From an uncultured Gammaproteobacteria bacterium (lineage in GTDB: Bacteria > Patescibacteriota > Patescibacteriia > Magasanikbacterales > UBA922), in NCBI GenBank assembly GCA_964522405.1, contig CAZFTR010000003.1, positions 35,711-99,710 on the forward strand: DNA of 64,000 nucleotides. The letters run 5' to 3'. Below are positions 1,406-61,552 of the stretch, piece after piece. A program made the position numbers and the translations under genes. Under the pieces are notes generated by a model. That model saw only the letters and a list, made by a program, of their open reading frames with translations, did not search any database and was not told the origin of the DNA. Positions within the stretch are counted from its first letter, which is position 1; each line of letters opens with the position of its first letter.

Positions 1406-2797
1406 TTATCGTCTTACATAACGAAGAGGGTTCTGTTTTCTACCATTTACCCTAACCTCAAAGTGAAGATGCGGACCTGTTGAGCGTCCAGTTGAACCCA
1501 TCAATGCTATAGTTTCTCCTTGACTAACCTGCTGACCAACTGAAACATACATTCCATCTGTTCTGTTATGAGCATATAAAGTATGAACCCCATTTCCATG
1601 ATCAATTATAATATAACAACCATAACCACCATTCCACCCACACTTTGATTTTATTATGCGACCGGATTTTGCTGCATATATTGCGCTTCCACTTTTTCCG
1701 GCAACATCAAGACCTGTATGTCTCCAACCATAATACTGAGTGATTATACGAGCTGCTGATGGCCAAATATAATTCTGCCCAGCAGGCGCGTTTACAGACG
1801 GTGGCGGTGCCACAACTCTACTAAATGTTTTGGAGGTTGTTCTGGTAGCAACATAACGAGCTTGCGGTTTTCTACCGTCAGGAACAACTAACTCTTCTCC
1901 AACTACAATATCTGAACCATCTGATTGCAATCTATTAAAGGCAATAACTTGATCTTGTTCAGCTTTGTATTTTTTGGATATTGCAGAAATTGTGTCTCCG
2001 CGTTTAACAGTATGGAGGACTCCATCTATTGGCAAAATCTTCAATGAGTCTCCAGGGCGAATATATGATCTAGCTGACAAACCATTTGCCCAGAGAATTG
2101 TCTCCACATCAATTCCATAACGCTTGGCAATATTACTAACAACATCACCCGGTTGAACTTCGTACTGCACAATTCTTGATCTCTTGACTTGTTCGCTTCC
2201 AGGCGCCACTGTTTCCAGGTCAGCCCCAGGTGCAATTATTGGCTTAGTAAGAGCATGTCCACCGGCACTTATTCCTGTTAGGTCCTGTGGTTCTGTCTCC
2301 ATCTCCACCCCAATTGATTCAGCAGGCTGATCCAAGACAATCGCACCCTCTTTCCAAGCTGACTGTATTGTTTCAAGCTCAGTATCAACTGTTTCACTAA
2401 TTATTTCCTCCAAATCAAAATCCTGCTCACCAGGACCCACCACTTTATAGAGTATGGTTTTATGCCCCGGAATACTATCATGCTCTTTTGAGTATAGCTT
2501 ACTCTGGGGAATCATTATTACCAACATTATTACCAACAAAAACACCTGAATTGAACCTCTCCTACCCAAGATCTCAAAAGTGCTATATTTATGAAGAAGA
2601 ATATGTTTTCTTATAAATTTACCTACATGAAAAGAAATTTTGTAAATGTAAAATCCCAGGGTTTTCTTGTAAAGATTATTTACCTTTATCAACCCTTTCC
2701 AAACCCGTGACAAAACAAAAAATAGGCCACGTTTAGCAAAAACTAGACCTCTTAGTAATGTCAGCATTACTTTGTAGAATAAATATCGTTTGTTCAT
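1406..2797 (-). CDS. Membrane-anchored LysM-repeat M23 metallo-endopeptidase (cell-wall hydrolase)
   Basis: N-terminal TM segment, two LysM-like repeats (GDTISAISKKYK..., GDVVSNIAKRYGI...), and a C-terminal M23 core (HTGLDVAG...IIIDHGNGVHTLYAHN...GSTGRSTGPHLHFEVR). Confidence 0.8.
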   Translation of the reverse strand: MNKRYLFYKVMLTLLRGLVFAKRGLFFVLSRVWKGLIKVNNLYKKTLGFYIYKISFHVGKFIRKHILLHKYSTFEILGRRGSIQVFLLVIMLVIMIPQSKLYSKEHDSIPGHKTILYKVVGPGEQDFDLEEIISETVDTELETIQSAWKEGAIVLDQPAESIGVEMETEPQDLTGISAGGHALTKPIIAPGADLETVAPGSEQVKRSRIVQYEVQPGDVVSNIAKRYGIDVETILWANGLSARSYIRPGDSLKILPIDGVLHTVKRGDTISAISKKYKAEQDQVIAFNRLQSDGSDIVVGEELVVPDGRKPQARYVATRTTSKTFSRVVAPPPSVNAPAGQNYIWPSAARIITQYYGWRHTGLDVAGKSGSAIYAAKSGRIIKSKCGWNGGYGCYIIIDHGNGVHTLYAHNRTDGMYVSVGQQVSQGETIALMGSTGRSTGPHLHFEVRVNGRKQNPLRYVRR

Positions 2798-9848: not shown

Positions 9849-9931
9849 CATGAACTTTTCACCTTGGGGGGTGGCTGAATCAGCCGTAGGAAGGTGGGGT
9901 GTGTGGCGGGTGTGAGGGTTGAGGGTCAGCT

Positions 9932-10312
9932 CTAGTAGAGCAGTTCGGGCTCCGGGTAGAAGCCGTCCTCGCAGACCAGGGCGATCAGCGCCAGCTTGGT
10001 CGCGTCGTTGAACTCGCCATCGACCTGGACCTGCTCGCTCTCCTCGCTACCGTGGAGGATGAGGGCGGTCTGGAGCAGGCGCACGTCCCAGCCGGCGTCC
10101 TTCGGGTACATGACCTCGGCCCGGTACATCTGGTTGATGGTGGGCTCGTTGATCTCACCGGTGATCTCGAACTCGTCGTTGTCCTCCTGGTAGCTGCTCA
10201 GGGCCTGCCGAGTGCAGGGACCGAGCTCGCCATCGATCAGCAGCTCGCCGTCGGCGTCGTAGCCCTTGAGGGTCAGGAAGGCCTGGACCTGTCGGATCAG
10301 TTTGACATTCAT
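9932..10312 (-). CDS. Small protein with two peptidoglycan-binding (PGBD/PG_binding_1-like) repeats; gene is strongly GC-rich relative to its surroundings
   Basis: Repeats VQAFLTLKGYDADGELLIDGELGPCTRQALSSYQ and LLQTALILHGSEESEQVQVDGEFNDATKLALIAL. GAGGAG Shine-Dalgarno upstream. GC-rich codon third positions. Confidence 0.55.
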   Translation of the reverse strand: MNVKLIRQVQAFLTLKGYDADGELLIDGELGPCTRQALSSYQEDNDEFEITGEINEPTINQMYRAEVMYPKDAGWDVRLLQTALILHGSEESEQVQVDGEFNDATKLALIALVCEDGFYPEPELLY

Positions 10313-10394
10313 CTTGGGAACACTCCTCAGTGGTACCTGGCTATGGCCGGTACCTTCAAAAGTTCAAAATTAGTTATATCATTATTTTTTGGTC

Positions 10395-16202: not shown

Positions 16203-16228
16203 TTGTGAAAACTGAAAAGTTCGGCGTA

Positions 16229-16628
16229 AATAAAAACGCCCCGATGGTCAATCGGAGCGCGTTTGCTGCTGAAGGGTGGCGGGGCTCGGAGAGTCCCGCC
16301 GACGAGTCCTGATGGTCGGCTGCTGGAACAGCCAACCGGATCTCGCCGCCCACTCAGCGCAGCGCGCAGCTCAACGAGGGAAGAGACCCCTCGCAGGCCA
16401 TCGGCACCTGAAGACCCAGGCGCGTAGCACACCGTTAGCCGCTTTGTGGACATCGTCCATTAAAGCACACTTTCTGAGTCTTGTCAAGCAGTTGCGCGCC
16501 TCACCGCTGCCCTCGACAGGCGGCAAAGGAGGACGCAATGCGCTCATCGTCACCGCCCGAACTTCGTCGTCAACCACCAGGCCCTCTGCCTGAGCTTCGC
16601 TTCAGTCCTGAAGATGAGGCTCTTTAAT
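16229..16628 (+). ncRNA. Candidate structured RNA 'element A': GC-rich, non-coding-looking, paralogous to element B at 28971-29215; family not identified
   Basis: No credible ORF of 60 aa or more. Preceded by a -10-like TAAATA and bounded by the polA terminator and a 20-bp inverted-repeat terminator. Its 5' 80 nt align with element B with compensatory hairpin changes. Strand is inferred from promoter and terminator placement. Confidence 0.45.
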
Positions 16629-16721: not shown

Positions 16722-17948
16722 TTAATCCTCAATATCAACAATATATCTAAAACCAAAACCGTGCAGAGTCCAGTCAATGGCAATTTTCAATTTACGCATA
16801 AAACCAGGCATAAAAAGTAGATAAACAGTACGACGAATCCACCAGGCCAATCTTCCAAATAATACAAAATTGCCAATAATCATCACACCATACCAGTCAC
16901 CAATAGGCATTAGCACTCCTCTTGGTTTAAACATAAAAGGTCTGGTTTTTTTAGTTCTATAAGTTCTAGAGATGTGCTTAGCAACATACTGAGCTTCTTT
17001 GTGAGCAGCTTCAGCAAGCTGAGGATAAGGAATATTACTGTCAGGATCAAGGAGAAGCATAATATCTCCAATAGCGTAGAGAGAAGGATCATTTATGTGG
17101 GTGAGTTTATTGGTAACCGGAATTCTGCCTTTTTGAGTATGAGATTTTGCCAGAAATTTATCAGCAATATTGCTAAATCCGGTAGTCCAAATAGTAATAT
17201 CGCTTTTAATTGTTTTGTCACTATCAAGTACAACGCTATCAGCTCTTACTTCTTTTACACGGGTTCGCAAATAAGTTTTAATTCCTCTTTTTCTGAATCT
17301 GTTTGTTATTTTCTTGCGAACTTTTTCGGGCATGACCTTAAGAAGAAGATCTCCGGATTCAACAATACTGATGTTTACTTTGATATGAGGATAGAGTTTA
17401 GCTACATCTCTCTCAACAAAATCGCAAAATTGACCGGCAACCTCAACACCTGTAAATCCACCTCCGGCAACAACAATTTCCAGATTTTTTTGACTACAAT
17501 TTTCAAGTTTTTTGATAATTTCCTCATGAAGATCAACAGCACCCTTGAGACTTCGCACATGATGCGAAAATTTCTCTGCACCTTTTACTCCGAAATAGTT
17601 AGTAGTGCTACCAAGGGCAACAACACAGTATTCATAACTAATTTCCCCCATGCTTGTAACAACTTTTTTGGATTTTGGTTGAATTTTTTTTATTTCAGCT
17701 TTTATAAAACTGTGGGGAGTATGATGAACCAATTCGCGAAGAGGGACAGCACAATGATTTGGCTCTATAGAGCCGGCAGCAGCTTCATGAAGCATGGGAA
17801 CAAAAGTAAAATAATTGTTTTTATCAACAATGGTAATTTTTTTGTTGATGTTTTTCTTCTTTAGAAGTTTAGAAAGCGAGCGAAAAGTCTCATAGCCTCC
17901 AATACCAGCTCCAAGAATTAGAATATCAGTTTTTATATTTTTATGCAT
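16722..17948 (-). CDS. ndh: Type II NADH dehydrogenase-like FAD/NAD(P)-binding oxidoreductase with a C-terminal membrane anchor
   Basis: Dinucleotide-binding GAGIGG at the N-terminus, a second GxGxxG (AGGGFTGVE), and a hydrophobic C-terminal tail. Confidence 0.75.
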   Translation of the reverse strand: MHKNIKTDILILGAGIGGYETFRSLSKLLKKKNINKKITIVDKNNYFTFVPMLHEAAAGSIEPNHCAVPLRELVHHTPHSFIKAEIKKIQPKSKKVVTSMGEISYEYCVVALGSTTNYFGVKGAEKFSHHVRSLKGAVDLHEEIIKKLENCSQKNLEIVVAGGGFTGVEVAGQFCDFVERDVAKLYPHIKVNISIVESGDLLLKVMPEKVRKKITNRFRKRGIKTYLRTRVKEVRADSVVLDSDKTIKSDITIWTTGFSNIADKFLAKSHTQKGRIPVTNKLTHINDPSLYAIGDIMLLLDPDSNIPYPQLAEAAHKEAQYVAKHISRTYRTKKTRPFMFKPRGVLMPIGDWYGVMIIGNFVLFGRLAWWIRRTVYLLFMPGFMRKLKIAIDWTLHGFGFRYIVDIED

Positions 17949-18003
17949 AAGATTATATCCCCCCTCCTTGAAAAGGAGGGGGTTAGGGGGTAGTTATCAA
18001 TAA

Positions 18004-18417
18004 TTATTTTTTAGAGGATTTTTTTATGAGAAGAGATTTGATTTCATCAAGGTCTTTTTGCATGTCCTGGATTTCGCGTTCAGCTTTTCTGTTTACTGCA
18101 TAGTCATATTTAGCAGTAATTCTGTCCCGTTCAGTTTGTCTGTTCTGGCTCATAAGGATAATAGGAGCCTGAATAGCTGCAACACAAGATAAAATTAGAT
18201 TGAGAAGAATAAAAGGGTATGGATCCCATTGATTGCTCCAGGCAGCCACATTGATCATCATCCAAAAAACTAAGAAAGTTAAGAAAATAATAATAAATAA
18301 CCAACTTCCAAAAAAAGAAGTAATGCTGTCAGTTGATCGTTGTCCAAGAGTTAACTTTTTTTTACCGGCTATTACCGGATGCTCTCCAGTTTTTCTATGT
18401 TTAAAAGGAATTTTCAT
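18004..18417 (-). CDS. DUF1003-family membrane protein
   Basis: WDPYPFILLNLILSCVAAIQAPIILMSQNRQ...RD matches the DUF1003 signature. Two TM helices. Confidence 0.7.
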   Translation of the reverse strand: MKIPFKHRKTGEHPVIAGKKKLTLGQRSTDSITSFFGSWLFIIIFLTFLVFWMMINVAAWSNQWDPYPFILLNLILSCVAAIQAPIILMSQNRQTERDRITAKYDYAVNRKAEREIQDMQKDLDEIKSLLIKKSSKK

Positions 18418-18591
18418 AGTGGCTTAATTATATCACAAAAATAATTGAAAAAAAATAAAATAAAAAACACCGAGTGGTGTTAAATTAAGATTCTCGACCG
18501 GCCCATGCTGAAGTGACAGGTGGTCGAGCATGGGACGGTGGGGTGAAAGAGCAGTGTGGTTTCCTCCTGTAAGGTTTGGCGGCGCAGCTCG

Positions 18592-18807
18592 CTACATGGA
18601 GGTGAAGATATGCCCCCGGAAGTCTTCAACTGCCATGGTGCGGACCGAAGTCCAGCCGATGTATGAGAGATGGACGTGGGGACGTCCCCCAAATTCGAAT
18701 TGGACATCCGGGCGAGCGATCCTCTCCTCGATTTCTTCCCTGGAGTCCAAGAGCGCGACCTGAACCACCTTGCGACCCTTGAGTCTCGGGTGGTCAACGA
18801 TTCTCAT
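18592..18807 (-). CDS. Hypothetical 71-aa protein encoded in a GC-rich segment; no family recognised
   Basis: Only protein-like frame in the GC-rich block 18470-18810. The other frames translate to Arg/Ser/Pro-rich junk. A pseudoknot-like repeat and a hairpin terminator lie just downstream on the minus strand. Confidence 0.3.
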   Translation of the reverse strand: MRIVDHPRLKGRKVVQVALLDSREEIEERIARPDVQFEFGGRPHVHLSYIGWTSVRTMAVEDFRGHIFTSM

Positions 18808-18958
18808 AGCCCCTCCTCTAGGCGCGTATTTAAGGAATAGTTAATCAAATAGGTAAGTTTTTGTCAAACAAAAAATTCCTATTTTGTGAAAGGAATTTTT
18901 TGCTATCTTTTTTGTACAAAAAAGGGAATGCCGACTTTGTGAGGAGTGCCGGCAACTC

Positions 18959-19441
18959 CTACCAGGGAAGCTTGAACGAGATGGTCGGCTTGAAGGCCAG
19001 AGACCAAGGACCGTCGACCAGCTTTCCCACTCCGAAGAGGAAAAGCAGGGAGGTCGTCTCGTTGATCTTGACGCCCGGGGTGACGGACAGTCCGATCAAA
19101 TGCTTCCACTCGTCGTTGTAGGGAGGGGTGGGTTCGTAGAGCAGGGTGATGGAGAGGAGGCTCTGCTCGGAGAGCTTAACCACTGGGCCAGTGAAGACAC
19201 GCGGGTTAGGTTTCAGTGCTGTCGTCGGGATCGAGATCCCGATTTCCGAGTGCCAGCCCAGTCCCTCGACCACCGGGAAGGCCACTCCGACGCCGAGCAC
19301 GGTTTTGCTCGGCAGAAACTTGGCGCCGTCGTCGGGGAAGGCCACGGCCCAGCTCTGGCCTGCGCCGATGCGGAAGGTCTGGGCGTTGGCAGTGTTGTAG
19401 AGGGGGGTGAGGATGGACAGGATCAGGATCAGGTTTTTCAC
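18959..19441 (-). CDS. Secreted beta-strand-rich protein with signal peptide and C-terminal aromatic residue (OmpW/PagL-sized beta-barrel-like); GC-rich
   Basis: Signal peptide MKNLILILSILTPLYNTANA. Alternating hydrophobic pattern. Ends ...FKLPW. Start overlaps the upstream gene by 4 nt (ATGA). Confidence 0.45.
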   Translation of the reverse strand: MKNLILILSILTPLYNTANAQTFRIGAGQSWAVAFPDDGAKFLPSKTVLGVGVAFPVVEGLGWHSEIGISIPTTALKPNPRVFTGPVVKLSEQSLLSITLLYEPTPPYNDEWKHLIGLSVTPGVKINETTSLLFLFGVGKLVDGPWSLAFKPTISFKLPW

Positions 19442-19713
19442 TTGGTTTCTCCTTCAAGTCCTTTAGTGAGCCAGTCGAAGAGCTTCACTCTGAGTCGCGA
19501 CTTGGCGAAAAACCAGCCTGCGCATGCGATGATGCCGGCCATGAAACCAGACCCCAGCATGTGGAACTTCAGGTTCTGCTCAGGGTTGAAACCCAGAAGG
19601 TCGCTACAGTAGTTGAACAAGTCGATCATGGCGTAGGCGTACAGGGAGACGCACCACAGAATCAACACGCCAGAGAGACCCCAGATCGGAATCACCAGGA
19701 TTTTTTTGACCAC
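19438..19713 (-). CDS. Small two-TM membrane protein (91 aa), first gene of a GC-rich two-gene cassette
   Basis: Two hydrophobic helices (ILVIPIWGLSGVLILWCVSLYAYA and GSGFMAGIIACAGWFFA). Translationally coupled to 18959..19441. Confidence 0.4.
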   Translation of the reverse strand: MVKKILVIPIWGLSGVLILWCVSLYAYAMIDLFNYCSDLLGFNPEQNLKFHMLGSGFMAGIIACAGWFFAKSRLRVKLFDWLTKGLEGETK

Positions 19714-19821
19714 AGTCGCCTCCGCGAACGGTTTAGAAGGAACAATTCAAGCTTGATGATCCAACTCTATCATATTTTTCTGTATGTGTCAAGTATATTT
19801 GGCTAAAATAAGCTAAAAAAA

Positions 19822-19905
19822 CGTCATCTACAAAATGACTAGATTTATAAATTATTGATTTTTTCGCTAAATATAGTATAATAAGATTGTCATAAAAAAT
19901 ATGAC
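19822..19905 (+). promoter_or_regulatory. Promoter TTGATT-16-TATAAT (19855-19882) with two GTCAT/ATGAC palindromes: GTCATA-N5-TATGAC at 19889-19905 over the predicted start site, and GTCAT-N9-ATGAC at 19822-19844
   Basis: Read directly. Sits just 5' of the TrmB-like regulator gene, so a likely auto-operator. Confidence 0.45.
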
Positions 19906-19911
19906 AAAACT

Positions 19912-21450
19912 ATGGTAAATAAAGATTTAGAAAAATTGGGCTTTACAAAGAATGAAGTAAAAATTTATCTTTCTCTTTTTGATCTTGGAAAAGTTCGGGC
20001 TGGAGAGATAATAGATTATACTAAATTGCATAGAAATATAGTTTATACAGTTTTAGATGAGTTAGTTAGAAGAGAGCTGGCAAGTAAGACGCTAAGTAAG
20101 GGAATAGCAGAGTTTGTGGCAAATAATCCAGATAGATTAATAGAAGAAGTGGATACAAAGAAGAGTATTGCTGAAAAATTGGCAGAAAGTTTAAAAATTA
20201 AGCAGGAAGAAAAACCTAGAGAGGTTGCAGTTTATGAAGGGGTTGAAGGAATAAAGCACGTTCGAGATAAAACCTTAAATTTAAAAAAAGAAAATACAGT
20301 ACATGTCATGGGAGCTTCAAAACTCAGCACAATGCCGGAGTTAGAAAAATATTGGAAAGCATATCACAAGAAAAGAGATCTACGCGGACAAGAAGCAAAG
20401 TTTTTATTTTTTCGTGGAGCTGCCAATTCATCTGATTGGCGTAAAAATTTACCAAATACAGAAGTTAGGGATCTGCCATTCAATGCAGAGATGCCGATTT
20501 GGTTTGAATTTTATGATGATCAATTAGGAATAGGATTACCATCAGAAAATCCACTGCTTTTTATAATAAAAAGTAAAGAAGCAGTAGAAGGATTTAAACC
20601 CTTTTTTGAATATTTTTGGAATCAGGATGTTTATGTAGATAGTGGAGAGGGAGCGCTTGATAGAGCTTTTTATTCCATGCTTAATGAACTTGAAGAGGGA
20701 GAAGAGTATTATGTACTCGGTGCTACACATGGAGAGCAAGCAGAAAGTACTTTGAGTTTTTTTGACCAGTATCATAAGAAGAGAATTGAAAAAGGAGTTA
20801 TAACAAATATGCTTGTTACACAGGATTCTTTTGAGATAATTAAGCATAGATATTCTTCTATGGGAGATCCGGATTTTGAGATAAGTCATGTGAAAAGAAT
20901 GCTGACCACAACGCCACAACCCTTTCAAATAAATATGTATAAAAATAAAGTACAAATGGTTTTGTATGGAGATGAGAATAGAGTCATGTATATGGATGAT
21001 CAAGATGTTTATGCTGGATTTAAAAGCTATTTTGACATGCTTTGGGGCCAAAAAATGGCAACCTACTCAGATGATCAGGGCGCAAGTATTGCCTTTGAGG
21101 ATATTTTGAAAACATTAAGTTCTGGAGATGAATTGCTGGTCATGGGAATTTCAGAGTTTGATCCAGATTTTTTTAAGTTTATTGAGAGCTTTCATGGGAT
21201 TAGGTCAAAAAAAGGAATAAGTGCAAGAATTTTGCTGAATGATAATGCCAAGAAAATGGGAAATGCCTTGGGAAAATTAGAGAAAACAAAAGTTAAATAT
21301 ATGAAGGAGGGTGTGGTAACTCCAGCAGTTTTTCTGATATATGGTGAAAAGATCTTGTTCAGTATTCCAAATCAGAGAACATTTTTTAGTTTAGATAACA
21401 AAGCGGCAGCAGAATCATTTAGAACGTATTTCAATTCACTTTGGGGATAG
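19912..21450 (+). CDS. TrmB-family winged-HTH transcriptional regulator with a large C-terminal domain
   Basis: N-terminal LGFTKNEVKIYLSLFDLGKVRAGEIIDYTKLHRNIVYTVLDELVRRELA matches the TrmB HTH. The roughly 400-aa C-terminal region is unassigned. Confidence 0.6.
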   Translation: MVNKDLEKLGFTKNEVKIYLSLFDLGKVRAGEIIDYTKLHRNIVYTVLDELVRRELASKTLSKGIAEFVANNPDRLIEEVDTKKSIAEKLAESLKIKQEEKPREVAVYEGVEGIKHVRDKTLNLKKENTVHVMGASKLSTMPELEKYWKAYHKKRDLRGQEAKFLFFRGAANSSDWRKNLPNTEVRDLPFNAEMPIWFEFYDDQLGIGLPSENPLLFIIKSKEAVEGFKPFFEYFWNQDVYVDSGEGALDRAFYSMLNELEEGEEYYVLGATHGEQAESTLSFFDQYHKKRIEKGVITNMLVTQDSFEIIKHRYSSMGDPDFEISHVKRMLTTTPQPFQINMYKNKVQMVLYGDENRVMYMDDQDVYAGFKSYFDMLWGQKMATYSDDQGASIAFEDILKTLSSGDELLVMGISEFDPDFFKFIESFHGIRSKKGISARILLNDNAKKMGNALGKLEKTKVKYMKEGVVTPAVFLIYGEKILFSIPNQRTFFSLDNKAAAESFRTYFNSLWG

Positions 21451-30446: not shown

Positions 30447-30716
30447 ATGACCAGAATGAGCGCCTACTTCGGTGGCGGTGTTATCAGCTTCAAGAGAGAC
30501 CCCGACGACAAGATGTCGCCTACTGACGGCGTGATCCAGCCGGGCAAGGAGTTTGAATTCTACCCGTCCTACTACGAGCGCATCATTCTGACCCACGGTC
30601 GTGCCACCATCAATGGCAAAACCATGGTCGCTGGTGATGAGATCGTCGTTCCTACAGGTAAAAAGATCTGCATCCTGGCTCACGAAGTGAGCTGTTACGA
30701 GTGCTACTACAGCTGA
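30447..30716 (+). CDS. ppnP: PpnP/YaiE (DUF1255) family cupin-like pyrimidine/purine nucleoside phosphorylase homolog; GC-rich gene
   Basis: SAYFGGGVISFKR...GKEFEFYPSYYERIILTHGRATINGKTMVAGDEIVVPTGKKICILAHEVSCYECYY parallels E. coli YaiE (NEYFSGKVKSIGF...GEYTF...VISGAL...AGSVFNVPGHSEF...YLCRY). AGGAGG Shine-Dalgarno. Confidence 0.55.
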   Translation: MTRMSAYFGGGVISFKRDPDDKMSPTDGVIQPGKEFEFYPSYYERIILTHGRATINGKTMVAGDEIVVPTGKKICILAHEVSCYECYYS

Positions 30717-30830
30717 GACCAACAAAGGGGAACTCACGTGCACGTGTATCTTGACGGCAGCCTTTGCCAGTCGTCGAGATGCATTCAAAACAACCCAGAA
30801 TATGGGTTGTTTTGTTAGTTTAAGATGAAA

Positions 30831-31817: not shown

Positions 31818-31912
31818 ATTATAATTTTAAATTTAGACAACCAAATGCCAAATATATTTTGACACTTAGATGCCCGCGCTGTGTCCTCCAGGTACAACGC
31901 TTGGCCTCCTTA

Positions 31913-33223
31913 TCAGTTGTTGATCAGTGTGCGGAACTCGTCCCGCGCAGCGCTCGCAGCGATTTGCGAGGTAGCCACGACTGCGAACGAGAACCAGCCC
32001 TTGAGCTCAGGATCAGGTGGCGAGACGATGATGATCTTCACCTTCGCGCAGTCAGTCTCTTCCTGAACTCGGCGTTCGGCCTGCTCGGCAAGAGCGTTCA
32101 ACTCACTGGCGGAGAAGACCTTACCCTTGATGGGCGGATCTTCGTCGTACTCAGCGAAGAGTTGGCTCTTGTTCGTTTCCCAGAGCTTGGCCAGTTGCTC
32201 CAGGATGTTGAGGATCACGCTCGTGAGCAGCACGCGCGCGTTGCTCTCGAAGTAGAAGCGAACTCTTTCTCCGAGTGCTGCATCCACGTCGGCGTCACCG
32301 CGGTAGCCCATCTCGTGCAGATGCCAGCCGTAGGCGAGCGCTTCCTCGATGACTTGCTCGAGACCGGGGATGGCAGGGCAAGGCACGGTGCAGCCCACCG
32401 ACTCAAGGCCATTGAGTCGACGGAGCGTGGTCGCCACGATCTTCGGACCTGCGTCCATGATCTCCATGACCACCGAGATGGCCTTCAGACCCTGGTAGAG
32501 ATCGTAGAGGTGTGGCTCGACCAGTACTGCGACCGGGTCAGCGATCTTGGCGATCGCTTTTCGCAGCTCTGCTTCGGTCGCGCAGAGCGCGTTGCCCAGG
32601 CCACCGGCCGAAACGATCTCGCGCAGAACCGCGCGCACGGCCCTCGCCAGCTCCTTGCGCGCCCGATCGAAGATCTGCTTGCGATCAGTGATGGCGGTCG
32701 GTGCGTTGGGTAGCGGAAGTCCATGCTCGTCACAGTAGAGCGTGAACCTCTGCTTGTCGTTGCTGCGTTGCGGTAGGCCTGCCTTGACCAGGTCTTCGGG
32801 GGTGCCGAGCACCTCGAGACCGAGTTCATTCCCCAGCTTGCAGACCGATGCGTGTTGCATGAGTGGTCCCAGCTTGTAGCCCTGGCGGCCGAGCTCGGTG
32901 ATCTCCCGACAAAGTCGCGGACTCCTTCGAATTTCTGCCACGAAATCAAAGGGTGAGCCCGGCATGTGGTCGAGGTAGAGCGGCTTGACCCGGAAGCCCA
33001 TGATCGAGGCGTGGTAGTCGAGGAGCTCCTCAATACCTTCGGTCGGCGGCAAGATGATGGTGTCGCCCGGCCCGATGCGCCACAATCCACGCAAGACCAG
33101 TTTGGCGCATTTGGCAGCGACCTTGCCCTCAGCCGGTTTGTTGAAAAACCTGCCGTAGTTCTCAACTGCGATAACTTTCATTTCCCCCTGCTCCAAGTGC
33201 GTGGATTCAAAAAAACTTCTCAC
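31913..33223 (-). CDS. ATP-grasp-fold carboxylate-amine ligase-like protein; GC-rich gene
   Basis: C-terminal catalytic block GYRGDADVDAALGERVRFYFESNARV parallels the D-Ala-D-Ala ligase/RimK pattern GxRGxARVDF....E(V/I)N..PG. The plus-strand ORF 31859..32713 is an antisense shadow. Confidence 0.5.
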   Translation of the reverse strand: MRSFFESTHLEQGEMKVIAVENYGRFFNKPAEGKVAAKCAKLVLRGLWRIGPGDTIILPPTEGIEELLDYHASIMGFRVKPLYLDHMPGSPFDFVAEIRRSPRLCREITELGRQGYKLGPLMQHASVCKLGNELGLEVLGTPEDLVKAGLPQRSNDKQRFTLYCDEHGLPLPNAPTAITDRKQIFDRARKELARAVRAVLREIVSAGGLGNALCATEAELRKAIAKIADPVAVLVEPHLYDLYQGLKAISVVMEIMDAGPKIVATTLRRLNGLESVGCTVPCPAIPGLEQVIEEALAYGWHLHEMGYRGDADVDAALGERVRFYFESNARVLLTSVILNILEQLAKLWETNKSQLFAEYDEDPPIKGKVFSASELNALAEQAERRVQEETDCAKVKIIIVSPPDPELKGWFSFAVVATSQIAASAARDEFRTLINN

Positions 33224-33545
33224 CCACGCTGTGCGGGTAATTTTTTTGCTCTATTGCCTAATAAAACAAAAAACTTACCCGCATGGATAAGAAGTTTGTT
33301 CCAAAAATCTATTCAAAAGACTTTGGCTTATCTTTCCCAGCAAGGGTTGGAAGGAGCACCTTGCTCAGATTGAGTAGGTTGCTAGAGAGTCACAGGGCCA
33401 ATTCCCTCATCTCTTCTTGATATTTCTAAATTGTCTAAAAGATCTGTTATTAGAATAATATATTTTTGGAAAATTGTCAAATTCGGTTTTTTGGTTGACC
33501 TAGAGAAAAATATCTGCTATAATCTTTCTACTTTGTTTAAATAAC

Positions 33546-46071: not shown

Positions 46072-47052
46072 ATGTTCAAAAAGACGGCGCTTCTCGCCAC
46101 TCTCAAGGTCCTCCAGGCGTATGCTGCCAAGCAGGCTGTCGATCAGATGTTCGAGGCACAGAGGCGTGCCTTCGACAAGATGAGCGACTTCCAACGGCGT
46201 CTCGCCAGGCGTGCCTTCATCTACAGGCGTCGGGCTATGTACGCCAGGAACTGGCACAACCCTCGTACTGTGGGGTGCGAGCTCGAACTCGTCATGTGTC
46301 GTCTTTCCGAGGACGGCAGCTTCTACGAGATCCATGGCAAGGTCGCGGAGCTGGTCGAGAAGATCGCAGCTCAGCATCCGAAGCTGGCCAAGTTCTTCGA
46401 CATCGAGTTCTCGGCGCATCAGATCGAGATCAGAACCGGAGTGCACATCTGCATTAACCAGATGCTCGACGAGCTGTTCGAGCTGATCGGCATCGCTCGA
46501 AAGGTCGCGGCTGAGCTGGGCTACGAACTCCACGCGGTTGAGTACATCGACTGCGAGTACAAGTTCGCTGCCCTCGACGTCACGCCGGGAGAAGTCGAGC
46601 CTGCCTACCTGGCCTTTGCCATGCAGAACCCGAGCAAGATCGACGCCATGTGCCGCGTGGCAGCGTTCCAGGTCTCGTTCGGACTCTGCAGCGAGCGCGA
46701 GGCCATCGACGTGCACAACCGGCTCATCGAGGCTCTGCCTGAGCTCATGCTTCGCTGGATGGACAGCGTTCGCAAGAAGCTCTTCGGACAGGTCATCGCG
46801 CCTGGGGTCTTCGACACGGGTCCGCTTCAGAACCTGGGCGAGCTCTTCGACCGCATGGCTGAGGCTGGATGTCTCGGTGGTCGCAAGGGGCGTTACTACC
46901 CGGCGATTCGGCTCCAGGACAAGATCCCGGTGGCTGAAGTGCGGATCGGCGGCGCCACCGACGATCGGGAGCAGATGTTCCGGATGATCTGCGAGTTCTT
47001 CAAGGTCGCATTCCCGAGAGAGGCTCCGCCTCTCCGTCACATCTTCTGGTAG
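46072..47052 (+). CDS. GCS2/YbdK-like carboxylate-amine ligase-related protein (short paralog, tentative); strongly GC-rich
   Basis: GC-rich third codon positions on the plus strand. TVGCELELVMCRL resembles the YbdK 'TLGIELEM' ligase motif. The first 26 codons of the ORF track (FFFCFFF...) are AT-rich non-coding, so the start is placed at 46072. The minus-strand ORF 45997..47040 is an antisense shadow. Confidence 0.4.
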   Translation: MFKKTALLATLKVLQAYAAKQAVDQMFEAQRRAFDKMSDFQRRLARRAFIYRRRAMYARNWHNPRTVGCELELVMCRLSEDGSFYEIHGKVAELVEKIAAQHPKLAKFFDIEFSAHQIEIRTGVHICINQMLDELFELIGIARKVAAELGYELHAVEYIDCEYKFAALDVTPGEVEPAYLAFAMQNPSKIDAMCRVAAFQVSFGLCSEREAIDVHNRLIEALPELMLRWMDSVRKKLFGQVIAPGVFDTGPLQNLGELFDRMAEAGCLGGRKGRYYPAIRLQDKIPVAEVRIGGATDDREQMFRMICEFFKVAFPREAPPLRHIFW

Positions 47053-47094
47053 GAGGAAGGGGGGGAGGTCGGCGTGTTCCCCACCACGCTGACC

Positions 47095-47136: not shown

Positions 47137-47573
47137 CCACAAAATTTATTGACTGATTTTGTATATATGCTAATCTATAATTAGTATGAATCTAAAAAAT
47201 AGTCAAAAATTCATTATTCTGCCAGTGACTCCCTCCTAATTTGGCGGTTTTTTAGAACATATTTACCTCAACCCGCCAAAAAGGCGGGATTTTATTTATT
47301 TGGCTAATTTAAGATAAATCCCTTGACTAAACCATCTAAATTTGCTAATTTAAATTGTTAAATAGTGTTAAGATTAGAAGTTGATAAATAATATGATTAT
47401 TTTACAACTTTTGTTCTTTACAGTTGATGCTAGAAATTGTCCTTGTCTATTGATTTGCTGAATTTTCAGTGCATCAATAGGCAAGGACAGCTCTGTCCGG
47501 GCCGGTACGGGCATGACGTCCAAGCTGGCTTTGCCAGACAACCACCACGAAGCAGAGGGAGTCGAGAAGGCAA

Positions 47574-48950
47574 TTGGCCACGAAGCGACATCGAAACAAT
47601 TACGAGCGGGTTCGCAACAGACTCGCTGAACTCTTCACCAACGTCCCACGTGTTGCACTGGGACAGCGATTGACGCTGGGGCTTGAGGAGGAGTTCCAGT
47701 TCGTTCAGTCGACCGGCCTTCCCGGCCAGGCCTACCCCGTCATCGAGGGTGTCAGCCGGATGGAGGGCTACGAAGCTGTCTACGACGACATCTTCACTGA
47801 CGAGCTGATAGCTGCCCGTCATCCGGTTTTCGGGGGGCTGGGCTGGGATGCCGGCTACTCTCTGGTCGAGTGGGATTCCCCGCCTGTCACTCGAGTACAG
47901 ACGGCCGACGCTCTGCGCAACCAGATGCTCTGCACGGTGCTGCCGCTCGCAGGCCGAAACAGGCTGACGGTGGCGGGTATCGGCAGACTGCCTCTCGGCA
48001 AGGGCAGATCTGAGAGCTGGAAGCGCAAGGGTCGCTATGAGACCATGCGTTCCTGCTACGGGCCGGAGATCAACGCCGCTACCATGTGTGCGGCTCGCCA
48101 GGTCTCGGTCGGCACGCGGAGTATGCGTCACCAGATCAAGGTGACCAACACCTTCCTGGCGCTCTCGGGCGCCATCACGGCCATGACCGCCAACTCTCCG
48201 ATTCACTGCGGTCGAGCGCACAAGAAGATGCTGGCTTCGCGTCAGTTCTTCTGGTCCTCGTTCGCTGAGGCGAGTCGGGTCGGAGTCCCCAACCGACCCT
48301 TCGGCGGTCTCGGCTCTCTCCTCGACTGGCTGCTCGGCGAGAAGCTGCTCTTCTACAAGAAGGATGGCCAGTACGTCAAGTGCGGTCAACTCTTCTGGAG
48401 GGCGGCGGCTCGCTACGTCAACGACGACGAGATGTTCACGCAGATGGCACTGCTCCACATCGGCACCTGCTGGCAGGAGGCGCGGGCACGCATTCTCAAC
48501 GGTACGGTCGAGTTCCGCTCCATGTGCCAGCAGCCTCAGTCCACTGGTGCTGCCTGCGAGGCTCTGATCGTCGGACTGGCTGAGAACGTCGGCGAGGCCT
48601 GGGATCTGGTTCTGACCCACACCTGGGATCAGTGGCGAGAGAGTCGCGATCGTGGAGCCTGCCTCAGCTTCGGCGCCAAGGTCGGTCGCGAGCCCATGGT
48701 TCGAGTCTGCAACAGCGTGCTCAACGTGGCTGAGCGTGGACTCAAGATGCGTAAGTTGCGCGAAGAGCGCTATCTGCGCCCCTTCCGCGAGCGCGTCCTG
48801 CGCCGTCGGGCCCCGGCTCTCGACCAGCTTCGTTCCTGGGGCAAGGGTGGGCGCCAGCAGCTGATCCAGGACTCGGCCTACGAGATTGAGGCGTTGCCCA
48901 GCTACAGCAGCTACCGCGACCAGCTCGAGGCCATGGCCAGCTGCGCCTAG
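47574..48950 (+). CDS. Glutamate-cysteine-ligase family 2 (GCS2/YbdK-type) carboxylate-amine ligase; strongly GC-rich
   Basis: LTLGLEEEFQFVQSTGL matches the GCS2 N-terminal signature. GC-rich third codon positions. The annotated start is TTG, and the true start may be the in-frame TTG just before TLGLEEEF. The minus-strand ORF 47466..48974 is an antisense shadow. Confidence 0.55.
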   Translation: MATKRHRNNYERVRNRLAELFTNVPRVALGQRLTLGLEEEFQFVQSTGLPGQAYPVIEGVSRMEGYEAVYDDIFTDELIAARHPVFGGLGWDAGYSLVEWDSPPVTRVQTADALRNQMLCTVLPLAGRNRLTVAGIGRLPLGKGRSESWKRKGRYETMRSCYGPEINAATMCAARQVSVGTRSMRHQIKVTNTFLALSGAITAMTANSPIHCGRAHKKMLASRQFFWSSFAEASRVGVPNRPFGGLGSLLDWLLGEKLLFYKKDGQYVKCGQLFWRAAARYVNDDEMFTQMALLHIGTCWQEARARILNGTVEFRSMCQQPQSTGAACEALIVGLAENVGEAWDLVLTHTWDQWRESRDRGACLSFGAKVGREPMVRVCNSVLNVAERGLKMRKLREERYLRPFRERVLRRRAPALDQLRSWGKGGRQQLIQDSAYEIEALPSYSSYRDQLEAMASCA

Positions 48951-49208
48951 CATCAACGACCGAATCGCCGTCATCAGGGAGACGGCGTGTAGGGAGGGAA
49001 TTGGGCGGAGTGTGTGCGTGTCATGCGTAGCACACCGCCCCGGTTCTTGTGCAAATAAGTTTATTGTTTGTAAAAGAAACTTTAATAGTGAGTAATCAAT
49101 AGTGTTTAAGCACTATTGATTTTTTTATTTAATAAATCTTAATCAGTAACAAAATTGCCAGTAAGTTTTTTTTGTGTTAATCTTCACCTCATAAATTATA
49201 AAATTCTT

Positions 49209-56352: not shown

Positions 56353-57234
56353 ATGAGTAAAGTTAGAAAAGGCGTAATTACTGTCGCTGGTCTTGGTACA
56401 CGTTTTTTACCAGCCACAAAAGCTATGCCAAAAGAGATGTTGCCAGTACTTGATAAGCCGGTAGTCCAATATATAGTAGAAGAAATGGCAGCAAGTGGAA
56501 TTACAGAAATAATATTTGTAACCAGTTCAAAGAAAACAGCAATTGAAGATCATTTTGATCGAAATCATGATTTTGAATGTGCATTAGAGAAGGCTGGAAA
56601 GTTTGAAAGATTAAAGCCATTGGTAGAATTATCCAAAAAAGTTCGTTTTTTCTATACCAGACAATCAGCTCCTCTTGGAAATGGTCATGCCCTGCTCTGC
56701 ACTAGGGAATTTATTGGAAATCAACCTTTTGCTTTTTCAGACGGGGACAGCATTATTGATTCCAAGACTCCCGTTATTAAGCAGTTGGTCAAAGTTTTCA
56801 ATAAGCAAAAGGCCTCTGTTATTGGGGTTCAGAGAATTGATGACAAAGAAGCAATGACTAAGTACGGGAATGTATATGCTAAGCCTCTTAAAGAAAAAAG
56901 AACTTATAAAGTAAGTGAATTTATAGAAAAACCAAAATTAAAAAATGTCTCACCGGAAGGATTAATAGTTGGTGGGATGAGATATATTTTCACCAGCGAT
57001 ATTTGGAATTTTCTTGAGAAACAGAGAAAAGGAAAGGGCGGGGAGATCTGGCTTGCCGACGCAGCAAACGCACTTGCCAAGAAAAAACCATTTTTTGCTT
57101 ATGAATATGAAGGAAAGTATTTTGATACCGGCAACAAGGCATCGCTGCTTAGAACCTCACTCCACTTTGCCATGAAAGATCATGATTTAAAATCAGAAGT
57201 TTTAAATTTATTAAAAGAAAAATCAGAAATATGA
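56353..57234 (+). CDS. galU: UTP--glucose-1-phosphate uridylyltransferase
   Basis: GVITVAGLGTRFLPATKAMPKEMLPVLDKPVVQYIVEEM N-terminus and GalU-type C-terminal motifs. Confidence 0.9.
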   Translation: MSKVRKGVITVAGLGTRFLPATKAMPKEMLPVLDKPVVQYIVEEMAASGITEIIFVTSSKKTAIEDHFDRNHDFECALEKAGKFERLKPLVELSKKVRFFYTRQSAPLGNGHALLCTREFIGNQPFAFSDGDSIIDSKTPVIKQLVKVFNKQKASVIGVQRIDDKEAMTKYGNVYAKPLKEKRTYKVSEFIEKPKLKNVSPEGLIVGGMRYIFTSDIWNFLEKQRKGKGGEIWLADAANALAKKKPFFAYEYEGKYFDTGNKASLLRTSLHFAMKDHDLKSEVLNLLKEKSEI

Positions 57235-58571
57235 TTTCTTTAAATAAAATCAGGATTTCAGCATTTGTATTTTTTCTTGCTGCGGGTTTTTTGGTGTTTG
57301 CTGGTGGGGTTGGGGCTGCAGCGGAAGGATATTGTTTTTATTTGGAACCACCGGGTTTAACAGATTTATGTTATAAATATGATAAAGCTGCAAATGAAAT
57401 AGATGCAGATAGTTTAGCAGGTTGCAATACTTGGTCAGAAGAGTTAACCAAGGGAGAGGCTTTCCCGGAAAAATTAGTCGGTGGTATAGAGTTAGAGAAA
57501 TTTTCTACTGGTTGTCCTGATTTAAATATGTTAGATGCTGACGGTTCAGTAATGTATAAAATGAGTCATGTCCAAGTAAAGACCGGTGATCAAATTATTT
57601 TGTTTCCTATCCCGGTTGGAGCTTTGGAGATAAATTCAGATGCTTTGGCTGGAATTTTACCTAATATTTCTCACCCTAAATTTGTTTCCAGCGCTAATAA
57701 GCAATTGAATCCGACATTAACCCTAGAGCAAGTAAAAAAAGCAATTCAATTATTACAAACAAAAACTTGTTGTGTTCCCAAAGATCCAGATGCTGGACTG
57801 AAGTGTGGGGTTGCTGAATTAACAGATTTTGTTAAATCAGGTTTAAATGACAAGAACATTGCTATAAATTCGCCATTTGACTTTAAGCAAATTGAGAATT
57901 GGATTAATCCGCAAAATCCAGCTCAACCAAAATGGACTGATTTGTTTAAATGTCCGGTTCCTAAAAATATCCTTGGAGGAGGATATGCACTTTATACTGA
58001 TATTTCATGTTCTAGCCCATCACCAGTCGAAGCGCCGTCAGATAAGTATAATCAACAGCAGGGTGGAGTTATTATTGCTATAAGCGGGTATTGTGGTAGA
58101 AGTGAATCTTATCAATACTGCGCTTGTGATAAGGAGATTACCAGTTGCTACAAAACAGACAAAGCAAATGAACTAGATTGTCAAAAGGAAGCAACTCAAA
58201 AATTTGGAGCAGGTGCTTTTTGTCAAAAAACCATTATTGGTCATTCATGTAGTTTTAAAAAAGGCGGTGAATATACTGGTCCTACAGGATTATCAAACGA
58301 AGAGCTAAAAGCCATGGTCAAAGGACTGCATAAACTTCAAACTACAGATATAAGAGTTTTGATTGGTAATGCCATCAGAGTTTTAATGGGAATTATGGGA
58401 AGTATCGCTCTTGCTATGTTTACACTTGGTGGAATTATGTTTATGACAGCTTCCGGTAACGCAGAAAAGACTAAAAAAGGAATCAATATTGTAGTTTGGA
58501 GTGGACTTGGTTTGATTGTTATAGTATCAAGTTATGCTCTGGTTGATTTTATTTTGAAGGTTTTGAAATAA
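57231..58571 (+). CDS. Pilin-module paralog 1: secreted cysteine-rich ectodomain (about 370 aa) plus C-terminal TrbC/VirB2-like two-helix membrane module
   Basis: Signal peptide. C-terminal LMGIMGSIALAMFTLGGIMFMTASGNAEKTKKGINIVVWSGLGLIVIVSSYALV matches the family motif shared by the eight paralogs. Start overlaps the galU stop (ATGA). Confidence 0.6.
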   Translation: MISLNKIRISAFVFFLAAGFLVFAGGVGAAAEGYCFYLEPPGLTDLCYKYDKAANEIDADSLAGCNTWSEELTKGEAFPEKLVGGIELEKFSTGCPDLNMLDADGSVMYKMSHVQVKTGDQIILFPIPVGALEINSDALAGILPNISHPKFVSSANKQLNPTLTLEQVKKAIQLLQTKTCCVPKDPDAGLKCGVAELTDFVKSGLNDKNIAINSPFDFKQIENWINPQNPAQPKWTDLFKCPVPKNILGGGYALYTDISCSSPSPVEAPSDKYNQQQGGVIIAISGYCGRSESYQYCACDKEITSCYKTDKANELDCQKEATQKFGAGAFCQKTIIGHSCSFKKGGEYTGPTGLSNEELKAMVKGLHKLQTTDIRVLIGNAIRVLMGIMGSIALAMFTLGGIMFMTASGNAEKTKKGINIVVWSGLGLIVIVSSYALVDFILKVLK

Positions 58572-59976: not shown

Positions 59977-60699
59977 ATGAAACTCTTAATATTTTTCTCA
60001 ACAGTTTTATTTCTAAGTTTTGTTTTTTTATTTTCTCCCGGTGTGGTGAGTGCAGAAGGTGATTGTGAGTTGAATTATGAAGATTTTGGACTTAAGTGTC
60101 AGCCTATAGCTGATTGTGGGGATTCTGCAGAAATAACAGCTCAGACTCAGAAACATCACTCGGATGTTGGTCAGGGTTCTTTAGTTGTTCAAAGTGGTAA
60201 AACTGTTATAACAGGTCAGTGCGCTGACGCAAATCAAGTTTGTTGTTTCAAAACAGGTTCAGCAACTTCCGGAAGTGCTGCAGGAACATCGTTTGAAAAG
60301 CCTACATCAGGTAATACTGATAGCTTTGTCCCTACAAAACCGGATAAATACTTAGGTCCGTTGCCTCCTTGTGCTTGGGCTGGTACTTGTAGAGGAATCA
60401 ATGATGTCCTCTCAGTTGCTGTGAAGTGGGGAAGTAGAATCTTTGGATTTATTGGTTCAATGGCATTTGTTATGTTTGTCTATGGTGGATTTATGATGAT
60501 GATTTCAATGGGAAATGCTGAAAGAGTAAAAAAAGGAACTGATATAATGGTGGCAGCTGTAGTAGGTTTGATAATTGCTTTCAGCGCTTATTTGATTGTT
60601 GGATTTATACTTGATGCAATCGGAGTTACAGATCCGCAATTTAGGGCTGTTGATAAAATAAGTGCTGTTTTTGATCTGGTGGGTGACAGATTCTTATAA
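59977..60699 (+). CDS. Pilin-module paralog 2: N-terminal Cys-rich ectodomain plus C-terminal TrbC/VirB2-like module
   Basis: IGSMAFVMFVYGGFMMMISMGNAERVKKGTDIMVAAVVGLIIAFSAYLIV. Confidence 0.6.
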   Translation: MKLLIFFSTVLFLSFVFLFSPGVVSAEGDCELNYEDFGLKCQPIADCGDSAEITAQTQKHHSDVGQGSLVVQSGKTVITGQCADANQVCCFKTGSATSGSAAGTSFEKPTSGNTDSFVPTKPDKYLGPLPPCAWAGTCRGINDVLSVAVKWGSRIFGFIGSMAFVMFVYGGFMMMISMGNAERVKKGTDIMVAAVVGLIIAFSAYLIVGFILDAIGVTDPQFRAVDKISAVFDLVGDRFL

Positions 60700-60748: not shown

Positions 60749-61552
60749 ATGAAAAAAAGTACCAAAATTTTAGTTATAATGTCTTGTCTTGTTTTTGTAG
60801 GTTTAGTTTTCGTGCCGCTTGTTGCTGAGGCAACCAATGTTAGTGTGGTTAAACTTCAAAATCCTCTTGGTACTACCAATATTCCTCAGATAATAGGTGG
60901 TTTTATTGCTAGATTGTTAGCGTTAATTGGTTCAATAGCGCTTCTCATGTTTATAATTGGTGGGTTCATGTGGCTTACTTCTGCCGGTAATCCTGAGAAA
61001 ATCCAAAAAGGTATACAAACTATGATTTGGTCTGCTATTGGAGTGTTTATCATTTTCAGCTCTTATGCTATACTACAGCTAATCTTAAAAGGGCTGAGTG
61101 TAGAGAGTTATGCTGACGCACCGAATCCTTTTACTGTAGAAGAGGGAGTTGATGGTACATCATCCGAAGGAAAGCAAGGTTGTTACTGTATTTTCAAAGA
61201 AGATGAAGAAGCTGGTGAAAAGAAAGTAACCGCGCCTGTTAAGCAGGGTGATTGTACGGATTATGCAGAAGCAGCAAAAGAAACAATAAAATCATGTAAA
61301 TGGTATGAGACAGCTTCAGCAGCTGCAGCTACTGAAAAACAAAGTGAATGTCAGAAAAATTACAGCAAATTTGGTTTAAGCTGTAATACTAAAACAACTT
61401 GCGATAAGTCATCTGAATCAAAATCAAAAATCAAAAGCGCTTGGGCAGAAAAATCAAAACCACATAAGAATTCAAAAAAGAAATCATATTTTATAACTTG
61501 GCAGTGTCTGGGACAGCCGACAAATGTGGTATGTTGTGTGAAGAAGCCTTAA
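60749..61552 (+). CDS. Pilin-module paralog 3: N-terminal TrbC/VirB2-like module plus C-terminal Cys/Lys-rich domain
   Basis: IGSIALLMFIIGGFMWLTSAGNPEKIQKGIQTMIWSAIGVFIIFSSYAIL. Confidence 0.6.
   Translation: MKKSTKILVIMSCLVFVGLVFVPLVAEATNVSVVKLQNPLGTTNIPQIIGGFIARLLALIGSIALLMFIIGGFMWLTSAGNPEKIQKGIQTMIWSAIGVFIIFSSYAILQLILKGLSVESYADAPNPFTVEEGVDGTSSEGKQGCYCIFKEDEEAGEKKVTAPVKQGDCTDYAEAAKETIKSCKWYETASAAAATEKQSECQKNYSKFGLSCNTKTTCDKSSESKSKIKSAWAEKSKPHKNSKKKSYFITWQCLGQPTNVVCCVKKP

Follow-up and report, generated by a model that had tools for sequence, protein, structure and literature searches.

A 64,000-nt stretch of contig CAZFTR010000003.1 from an uncultured bacterium (assembly GCA_964522405.1), referred to below as the window and numbered from its own first letter, carries two GC-rich blocks of 55-65% GC at ~18508-18810 and 18920-19718. 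The right block holds an operon for a 91-aa protein with two transmembrane (TM) helices and a 160-aa protein with a predicted β-barrel fold, and it lies back to back with a gene for a TrmB-family regulator; the left block holds a gene for a 71-aa protein. We consider it fairly probable that the right block is a lineage-conserved regulon and the left block a lineage-specific orphan gene. Base composition confirmed that the two blocks flank an AT-rich spacer, as described in an earlier note on this DNA, which had taken both for insertions and had suggested foreign or phage-derived cargo. For the right block the cargo proposal did not hold: barrel gene, TrmB-like gene, promoter and operator are conserved and co-diverge in many lineages, and no phage, plasmid, PHROG or PADLOC match was found. 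The term insertion fits the left block only, which is absent from two related loci, and not the right block, which is ancestral to the lineage.

The regulator-barrel pair and its composition

All three open reading frames (ORFs) named in the earlier note were found on the minus strand. The 91-aa ORF (19438-19713) starts with GTG behind a GGAGG at 19719-19723, the 160-aa ORF (18959-19441, ending ...KLPW) starts with GTG behind an AAGGAG ribosome-binding site, and the 71-aa ORF (18592-18807) starts with ATG, 4 nt after an AGGAGG at 18812-18817. GC content at third codon positions (GC3) was 0.71 for the 71-aa, 0.83 for the 160-aa and 0.73 for the 91-aa ORF, with second-position values (GC2) of 0.37-0.44; overlapping alternative ORFs lacked coding-type codon-position GC. 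Because codon periodicity and GGAGG-type sites support them, we regard the three ORFs as real. The stop codon of the 91-aa ORF overlaps the start of the 160-aa ORF as claimed, although the junction reads GTGA, with a GTG start, and not ATGA; translational coupling of the 160-aa protein with the small two-TM protein is supported.

A metagenome scan seeded with the N-terminus of the regulator yielded 37 loci, 18 of which carry a barrel gene, mostly divergent and 130-215 nt upstream; a contig scan with the TrmB-like protein of the window returned only a distant archaeal match. A TrmB-like gene divergent to the barrel gene is present in loci L004, L005, L007, L009 and L011-L014. In L007 (GCA_043821725.1), a 165-aa barrel gene is overlapped by a 77-aa two-TM ORF, and the gene for the TrmB homologue diverges from that ORF. 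L011-L013 share the window neighbours PolA, holA, GGDEF and RmuC, and L018 and L027 keep the window order NDH-2, DUF1003, barrel, TrmB, with flanking proteins 64% identical to those of the window. Pairwise identities of the regulator (~50-60%) and of the barrel protein (~35-40%) co-vary (r = 0.76). With this synteny, the co-varying identities and a control region that can be aligned as DNA, the right block has the hallmarks of a regulator and a target passed on together by vertical descent, not those of a recent foreign insert. The barrel operon is an old lineage feature, conserved in about 20 related lineages. Relatives therefore carry the cassette in part: the right block sits at the same site in many lineages, and the 71-aa block is missing from L018 and L027.

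The regulator gene (512 aa; 19912-21450, plus strand) is divergent from the operon, has a host-like GC3 of 0.26 and encodes an N-terminal winged helix (Pfam PF01978, E = 1e-9, residues 6-62). The operon promoter (19764-19792, minus strand) consists of TTGACA, a 17-nt spacer and (TG)TAGAGT, and aligns with a conserved promoter in L005, L007, L009 and L014; a TATGATA just upstream of its -10 element resembles an operator half-site. The palindrome TCAAGCTTGA (19747-19756) lies in the 5' leader of the operon and occurs in the window, in L007 and L009, as a variant in L014, and in five further loci. A second palindrome, TTGTCATA-N5-TATGACAA (19887-19907), stands immediately 5' of the TrmB-like start as a candidate operator and is kept in L007, L014 and 26 of 36 metagenome loci. 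Across lineages the control region aligns at the DNA level over the regulator-start palindrome, the TTGACA-17-TATGAYA promoter and the TCAAGCTTGA leader palindrome. From these sites, the TrmB-like protein probably binds TTGTCATA-N5-TATGACAA and the related half-sites at the -10 element. Like TrmB-family regulators with divergent targets, the window regulator combines a PF01978 winged helix with a palindrome in the promoter region of its own gene. It differs from known TrmB proteins in its long C-terminal part (~400 aa of repeated modules), which matches no sugar-binding TrmB domain, and in its putative target, a barrel protein and not a sugar transporter.

In the 91-aa protein, two hydrophobic helices are followed by a basic C-terminal tail, and by the positive-inside rule both termini lie inside. 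No homologue was found in Pfam, NCBIfam, PHROG or PADLOC or by tblastn against all loci, it shows no sequence similarity to the 77-aa two-TM protein of L007, and it matches none of the described two-TM families, such as the small holin- or SLATT-like effectors. Between promoter and barrel gene, L007, L025 and L047 carry an unrelated small two-TM ORF, L009 carries a soluble 87-aa ORF, and L005, L011, L014 and L018 carry nothing; of the positional counterparts, only that of L025 shows some likeness to SLATT_1, with an E value (0.003) short of the cut-off. Since this slot varies between loci, we regard the 91-aa protein, a lineage-specific orphan, as an accessory and not a core part.

At two loci (L016, 3111-3704, minus strand; L048, 3212-3823, minus strand) the regulator has another divergent partner, a protein of ~200 aa that is β-rich in sequence and carries a signal peptide. 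Sequence identity between these two proteins is 31%, and neither matches the barrel-family hidden Markov model or Pfam; their GC3 is 0.84 and 0.87 vs 0.23-0.30 for the regulator. With them, a second family of GC-rich genes for exported proteins is seen in the slot of the barrel gene.

The background GC content of the window is ~35%, interrupted by sharply bounded islands of ~60% GC. Two Logan contigs from run SRR31802803 match window positions 17260-19013 and 18999-20342 at 99.9-100% identity and cross both junctions between host and GC-rich DNA. Because these contigs assemble each AT/GC junction independently, the junctions are real, and an assembly chimera was ruled out. GC3 in the window is strictly bimodal, with 47 host ORFs at 0.19-0.30, 8 island ORFs at 0.71-0.92 and nothing in between. 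A GGAGG-type ribosome-binding site precedes ~3 of 45 host ORFs, as against each of the 71-, 160- and 91-aa ORFs.

The compositional offset of the barrel gene recurs in its relatives. In the window, barrel GC3 is 0.83 and regulator GC3 0.26; the corresponding values for barrel gene and neighbours are 0.70 and 0.30 in L011, 0.74 and 0.28 in L009, 0.68 and 0.33 in L005, 0.74 and 0.26 in L033, and 0.82 and 0.22 in L035. The offset is also seen in L052, from a 48% GC genome (0.66 and ~0.47), and in L053, from a 56% GC genome (0.86 and ~0.55). Barrel GC3 exceeds that of the neighbours in nearly every lineage, by 0.1-0.6, with L014 as the one exception. Shine-Dalgarno sites likewise precede the barrel genes and not their neighbours. 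In L053, a 158-aa ORF immediately 5' of a distant barrel-family member (2207-2683, plus strand) also has a GC3 of 0.86 vs ~0.55 in its neighbours, and the offset can therefore reach an adjacent gene.

This offset is not the relic of one old transfer, because at 50-60% protein divergence synonymous sites should match the host. Translational selection for high expression was ruled out as its cause: GC3 of the genes for S6, trigger factor and DnaN is host-like, and the enrichment of G-ending four-fold codons in the barrel gene also contradicts a high-expression bias. High GC and GC3 are a trait of the whole barrel gene family in AT-rich genomes, upheld by an unexplained force. As candidate causes, selection could act on how the mRNA folds or how stable it is, or a limited set of tRNAs could decode the gene; Rho could exert effects on C-rich mRNA, or gene conversion could be biased at a surface gene prone to recombination. 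A structured GC-rich mRNA may depend on its Shine-Dalgarno site as a compensation in order to initiate in a host with otherwise unstructured messages. In the literature we found no paper linking Patescibacteria with Shine-Dalgarno and codon usage.

An unlikely alternative is that both blocks were acquired recently as cargo from a GC-rich, Shine-Dalgarno-using diderm donor, the barrel being a leftover outer-membrane protein (OMP) in a cell that has no fitting membrane for it. The bimodal GC3, the codon usage of a GC-rich genome and the GGAGG sites of island genes speak for it, as does the lack of any counterpart of the other islands in ~230 kb of related loci; for Patescibacteria, horizontal acquisition has been reported for up to 13% of the DNA (PMC12455944). 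Like the genomic islets described there, the window blocks have atypical GC content and codon usage, comprise one or a few genes and are intergenic, and the 71-aa block is lineage-specific; for this block, missing from L018 and L027, recent acquisition probably does hold. The barrel operon, unlike recently acquired islets, is syntenic and co-diverging: it occupies the same site, with the same regulator and an alignable promoter, in lineages whose proteins have diverged by 50-60%. Over such a distance synonymous sites would be fully ameliorated, yet the GC3 offset persists and recurs in every background, including the 48% and 56% GC genomes. No mobility genes, border tRNA or convincing flanking direct repeats were found at the right block, and a comparison of the cassette DNA with plasmids gave one 59-nt chance match. 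The covariation of regulator and barrel identities, too, leans towards barrel genes that follow their regulator.

Predicted barrel fold and probable host envelope

A word-indexed homology search with the 160-aa protein returned nothing, and a rerun with the family profile gave 3 matches only. A full phmmer search of 1.84 billion representatives found 64 cluster representatives, nearly all of 145-230 aa and 25-40% identical to the query, and the 160-aa protein can be placed in this unnamed family. The alignment of 63 relatives revealed an N-terminal signal peptide with an AxA-like end, a conserved Pro and a C-terminal F-x-L-P-[FWL] motif; read from the sequence, the predicted signal-peptidase site of the window protein lies after A18-N-A20 (MKNLILILSILTPLYNTANA|QT). 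Only 3-4 of the 63 relatives match OMP_b-brl or DUF2490, with best E values of ~1e-4 to 3e-5, and a few touch Autotransporter.

AlphaFold2, run with the family alignment, predicted a signal helix (residues 2-15) and eight strands of 11-14 residues (predicted local distance difference test score, pLDDT, 94.6; predicted template-modelling score, pTM, 0.81). The best Foldseek matches in the PDB were NspA, Ail, OmpX and OmpA-TM (1p4t, 3qra, 2mnh, 1qjp, 1qj9), with template-modelling (TM) scores of 0.5-0.6, and among viral models phage-encoded OMP barrels matched as well. In six of the eight strands, one face is strongly hydrophobic and the other, in clear alternation, small or polar. At the level of a predicted fold, the outer-membrane-barrel-like signature read from the bare sequence in the earlier note was thus borne out by the confident model, the OMP folds retrieved, the alternating hydrophobicity and the C-terminal motif. 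That the 160-aa protein is an exported 8-stranded β-barrel of the OmpX/Ail/NspA structural class is a well supported model.

The likeness to this class, comprising OmpX/Ail/Lom (Pfam Ail_Lom), NspA/Opa and the OmpA N-terminal domain, extends to size (~140 mature residues), the Sec signal peptide, eight long antiparallel strands with a hydrophobic lipid-facing face, and the C-terminal aromatic residue (TM scores of 0.56-0.61). Phage-encoded members such as Lom of lambda illustrate that parasites are able to encode such barrels. The 160-aa protein differs from it in sequence, being only 11-14% identical and outside the Pfam and NCBIfam OMP models. Also unlike the OmpX/Ail class, the barrel family is found in AT-rich genomes resembling those of the candidate phyla radiation (CPR), probably without an outer membrane or the β-barrel assembly machinery (BAM); it is tied to a TrmB regulator, and its coding sequence is compositionally aberrant.

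The genes of the window include dnaA, dnaN, PolA, a class A penicillin-binding protein, pilin-like proteins and DUF5667. A pilus operon runs PilB-PilC-PilM, followed by three small proteins, and contains no secretin. Three neighbouring T4SS_pilin (PF18895) proteins are encoded at 57231-58571, 59977-60699 and 60749-61552, beside a solute-binding protein, and suggest surface machinery for type IV secretion or for a conjugation-like process. T4SS_pilin and DUF5667 are typical of Patescibacteria/CPR. No outer-membrane-related Pfam domain was found among the ~40 host proteins scanned in the 64-kb window, and one related locus stems from Fennoscandian deep groundwater (SRR26275510). The few CPR cells described so far are monoderm (PMC8871954). 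On the strength of these 64 kb the host is very probably a CPR-type monoderm, and the CPR-like markers support the simple envelope presumed in the earlier note.

If the host were nevertheless diderm, the 160-aa protein would be an ordinary BAM-inserted OMP, odd only in its composition. We give this a low chance. The signal peptide, the 8-stranded barrel and the C-terminal aromatic motif are all sequence hallmarks of a BAM substrate, and the identity of the host was judged from 64 kb only. The three T4SS_pilin proteins, DUF5667, the secretin-less PilB-PilC-PilM operon and the lack of outer-membrane domains in ~40 proteins argue the other way, as do relatives from groundwater metagenomes rich in CPR (SRR26275510).

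A similarly low chance attaches to the idea that the barrel acts in the outer membrane of a diderm partner, either through secretion and self-insertion at the contact site or, more radically, through expression in the partner, and that its GC-rich codons and Shine-Dalgarno sites were selected for that role. Because the host looks monoderm, the likeliest place of action of the barrel, proposed with low certainty, would be the symbiont surface or the interface with a partner cell, where it may be a small adhesin or pore.

The left block and other GC-rich islands

The 71-aa protein had a single database match, to itself on a Logan contig, and none in the PDB, among plasmids or by tblastn against all loci; its single-sequence AlphaFold2 model is uninformative (pLDDT 43). 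In L018 and L027, only ~235 nt separate the barrel stop codon from DUF1003, and the 71-aa block was therefore either gained here or lost in the L018/L027 lineage; the DNA of the spacer between barrel and DUF1003 genes is too diverged between the window and these loci for insertion borders to be placed. Foreign insertion is the best reading for the 71-aa block only.

Downstream of the ORF, a terminator scan and folding identified an intrinsic terminator (18481-18466, minus strand; AACACC-ACTC-GGTGTT followed by TTTTTATTTTA), so that the hairpin terminator reported after the repeat region was confirmed. Between ORF and terminator lies a hairpin in the 3' untranslated region (18497-18539, minus strand) with 13-nt arms (18497-18509 and 18527-18539), of which 12 of 13 positions are paired, and a 17-nt loop. 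Its minimum free energy (MFE) is -19.7 kcal/mol (z = -3.2), and MFE and centroid structures are one and the same hairpin.

The earlier note had seen a pseudoknot in this region, and the repeats do exist in 1-2-1'-2' order: CTCGACC (18493-18499), CCCATGCT (18502-18509), GGTCGAG (18522-18528) and (AG)CATGGG (18527-18534). This order is shared with H-type pseudoknots; the rest of the claim did not stand. The CCCATGCT/AGCATGGG pair extends into the 13-nt hairpin arms, and CTCGACC/GGTCGAG pairing (18490-18499/18522-18531) takes up nucleotides of both arms, in competition with the hairpin. No sequence homologous to the left block, from which covariation might be read, was found in the collections searched. 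Loops of 0-2 nt are too short to cross helices of 7-8 bp, which makes an H-type knot with the 0-2 nt loops available here sterically implausible. Two interleaved perfect 7-bp stems arose in 5 of 5000 dinucleotide shuffles of the 109-nt stretch and in 1 of 95 comparable windows of other GC-rich islands, a frequency that is not compelling alone, the earlier note having covered all 64 kb. We read the repeat region as a stabilising hairpin at the mRNA 3' end before the terminator, its alternative pairing being possibly fortuitous.

It is very unlikely that the left block is a non-coding structured RNA with a pseudoknot and the 71-aa ORF spurious. Such an RNA would explain the lack of homologues and the poor AlphaFold2 model of the protein, and the 3' part does fold better than its shuffles and does hold the rare interleaved stems. 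The codon-position GC of the ORF (0.60/0.39/0.71) and the AGGAGG 4 nt before its ATG argue against it, as do the overlapping arms and short loops, and Rfam at a permissive threshold (E = 1) gave no relevant match in the left block. By its codon pattern, the 71-aa ORF looks like a real gene; it is a lineage-specific orphan.

Two hairpins separate this gene from the barrel operon. A GC-rich one (18916-18959, minus strand) starts at the stop codon of the 160-aa ORF, is followed by CUUUUUUGU, appears in the centroid fold and would be the first terminator of the operon. The palindrome noted in the AT-rich spacer was confirmed as a perfect hairpin (18869-18902, minus strand) with 12-nt arms CAAAAAATTCCT/AGGAATTTTTTG (CAAAAAAUUCCU...AGGAAUUUUUUG), followed by UUUG (fold z = -3.2); standing between operon and 71-aa gene, it probably acts as a fallback for the first terminator. 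In our model, the two are tandem terminators that insulate the 71-aa gene. The modules 18858-18889 and 18909-18942 share a T-run, an A-run and the loop TTTGTGA, with ~80% identity over 15-16 nt pieces, which could be a local duplication at the arrival of the 71-aa block or low-complexity chance.

GC-rich islands of the window lie at 9857-10321, 16245-16605, 18508-19718, 30454-30762, 31894-33164, 46084-47082 and 47478-49033. Their genes encode, among others, a 126-aa PG_binding_1 protein, an 89-aa Ppnp-like cupin, a 436-aa pre-ATP-grasp protein and two GCS2-type carboxylate-amine ligases of 352 and 458 aa. GGAGG-type sites precede most island genes and are largely lacking before host genes. For the GCS2-like, ATP-grasp-like, PG-binding and Ppnp-like genes, no counterpart was found in the ~230 kb of related loci. 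A SAM (S-adenosylmethionine) riboswitch (Rfam RF00162, 62 bits; 33325-33426, minus strand) stands directly 5' of the GC-rich pre-ATP-grasp gene (31913-33223, minus strand), which links metabolite sensing to at least one gene of foreign appearance.

Island 16245-16605, of 63% GC, follows directly after the PolA stop codon. None of its ORFs shows codon periodicity, and Rfam at the permissive threshold gave only noise there; it folds with z ~-2.4 on both strands and has a minus-strand hairpin with a U-run at ~16225-16255. It may be an RNA of ~360 nt or a decayed gene. At the equivalent position beside PolA, L011 carries a gene of 68% GC that shows no similarity to the window island; its 147-aa product is secreted and rich in Ala and Thr. 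Several host genes have a TATAAT-like box within ~10-15 nt of the start codon, for example DUF1003 (18004-18417; TGTGATATAATTAAGCCACTATG), which suggests that their leaders are very short or absent.

Proposed mechanism and implications

The mechanism we propose for the conserved regulon starts from the TrmB regulator, encoded back to back with a sigma-70-type promoter whose release would yield a bicistronic mRNA. Both cistrons would be read from strong Shine-Dalgarno sites of a kind largely missing from host genes. In the cytoplasmic membrane, the two helices of the 91-aa product would form a hairpin; the 160-aa product would be exported by Sec, cleaved after Ala18-Asn-Ala20 and folded to the predicted 8-stranded, lipid-facing barrel. 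The left block would have been gained between the operon terminators and the DUF1003 gene. A secreted, soluble barrel of lipocalin or avidin type, binding a lipid or small ligand scavenged from a partner, would suit the eight strands, the signal peptide, a probable monoderm host and the need of CPR to scavenge lipids, but is highly improbable given that the top 50 PDB matches of the model are all transmembrane barrels, with lipocalins and avidins absent, and given the strands of 11-14 residues, the hydrophobic face and the C-terminal aromatic motif.

Several considerations weigh against reading the right block as such a regulon. If the block had recently come from a GC-rich donor, just such strongly foreign-looking codons (CTG, GCC, ATC, AAG) and Shine-Dalgarno sites would be expected, and the mechanisms by which GC3 could be kept high for so long are so far candidates. 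Regulation by the TrmB-like protein is deduced solely from the conserved divergent layout and the conserved palindromes, and every step of the mechanism from computation. Neither Pfam nor NCBIfam matched the 160-aa protein of the window; its 91-aa partner is not conserved, which leaves the role of that partner in the system weakly supported. The envelope, finally, was deduced from 64 kb, and genes for BamA/Omp85, Lpt or Lol could lie elsewhere in the genome.

A GC3 offset that persists across more than 50% protein divergence contradicts the usual equation of atypical composition with recent transfer. Tools for island prediction would be misled by it, and it suggests that specific genes are subject to a selective or mutational force not yet known. 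Should the barrel act in a partner membrane, its genes would represent a previously undescribed compositional class in Patescibacteria. What remains of interest beyond that is a conserved, TrmB-linked family of OMP-type barrels in probable monoderms, with a signature in GC3 and Shine-Dalgarno sites that persists; together with the TrmB protein, this family offers a defined target for work on expression, lipid insertion and DNA binding. If the host has a single membrane, the barrel family bears on how ultra-small symbionts contact and tap their partners, and on whether the CPR had double-membraned ancestors.

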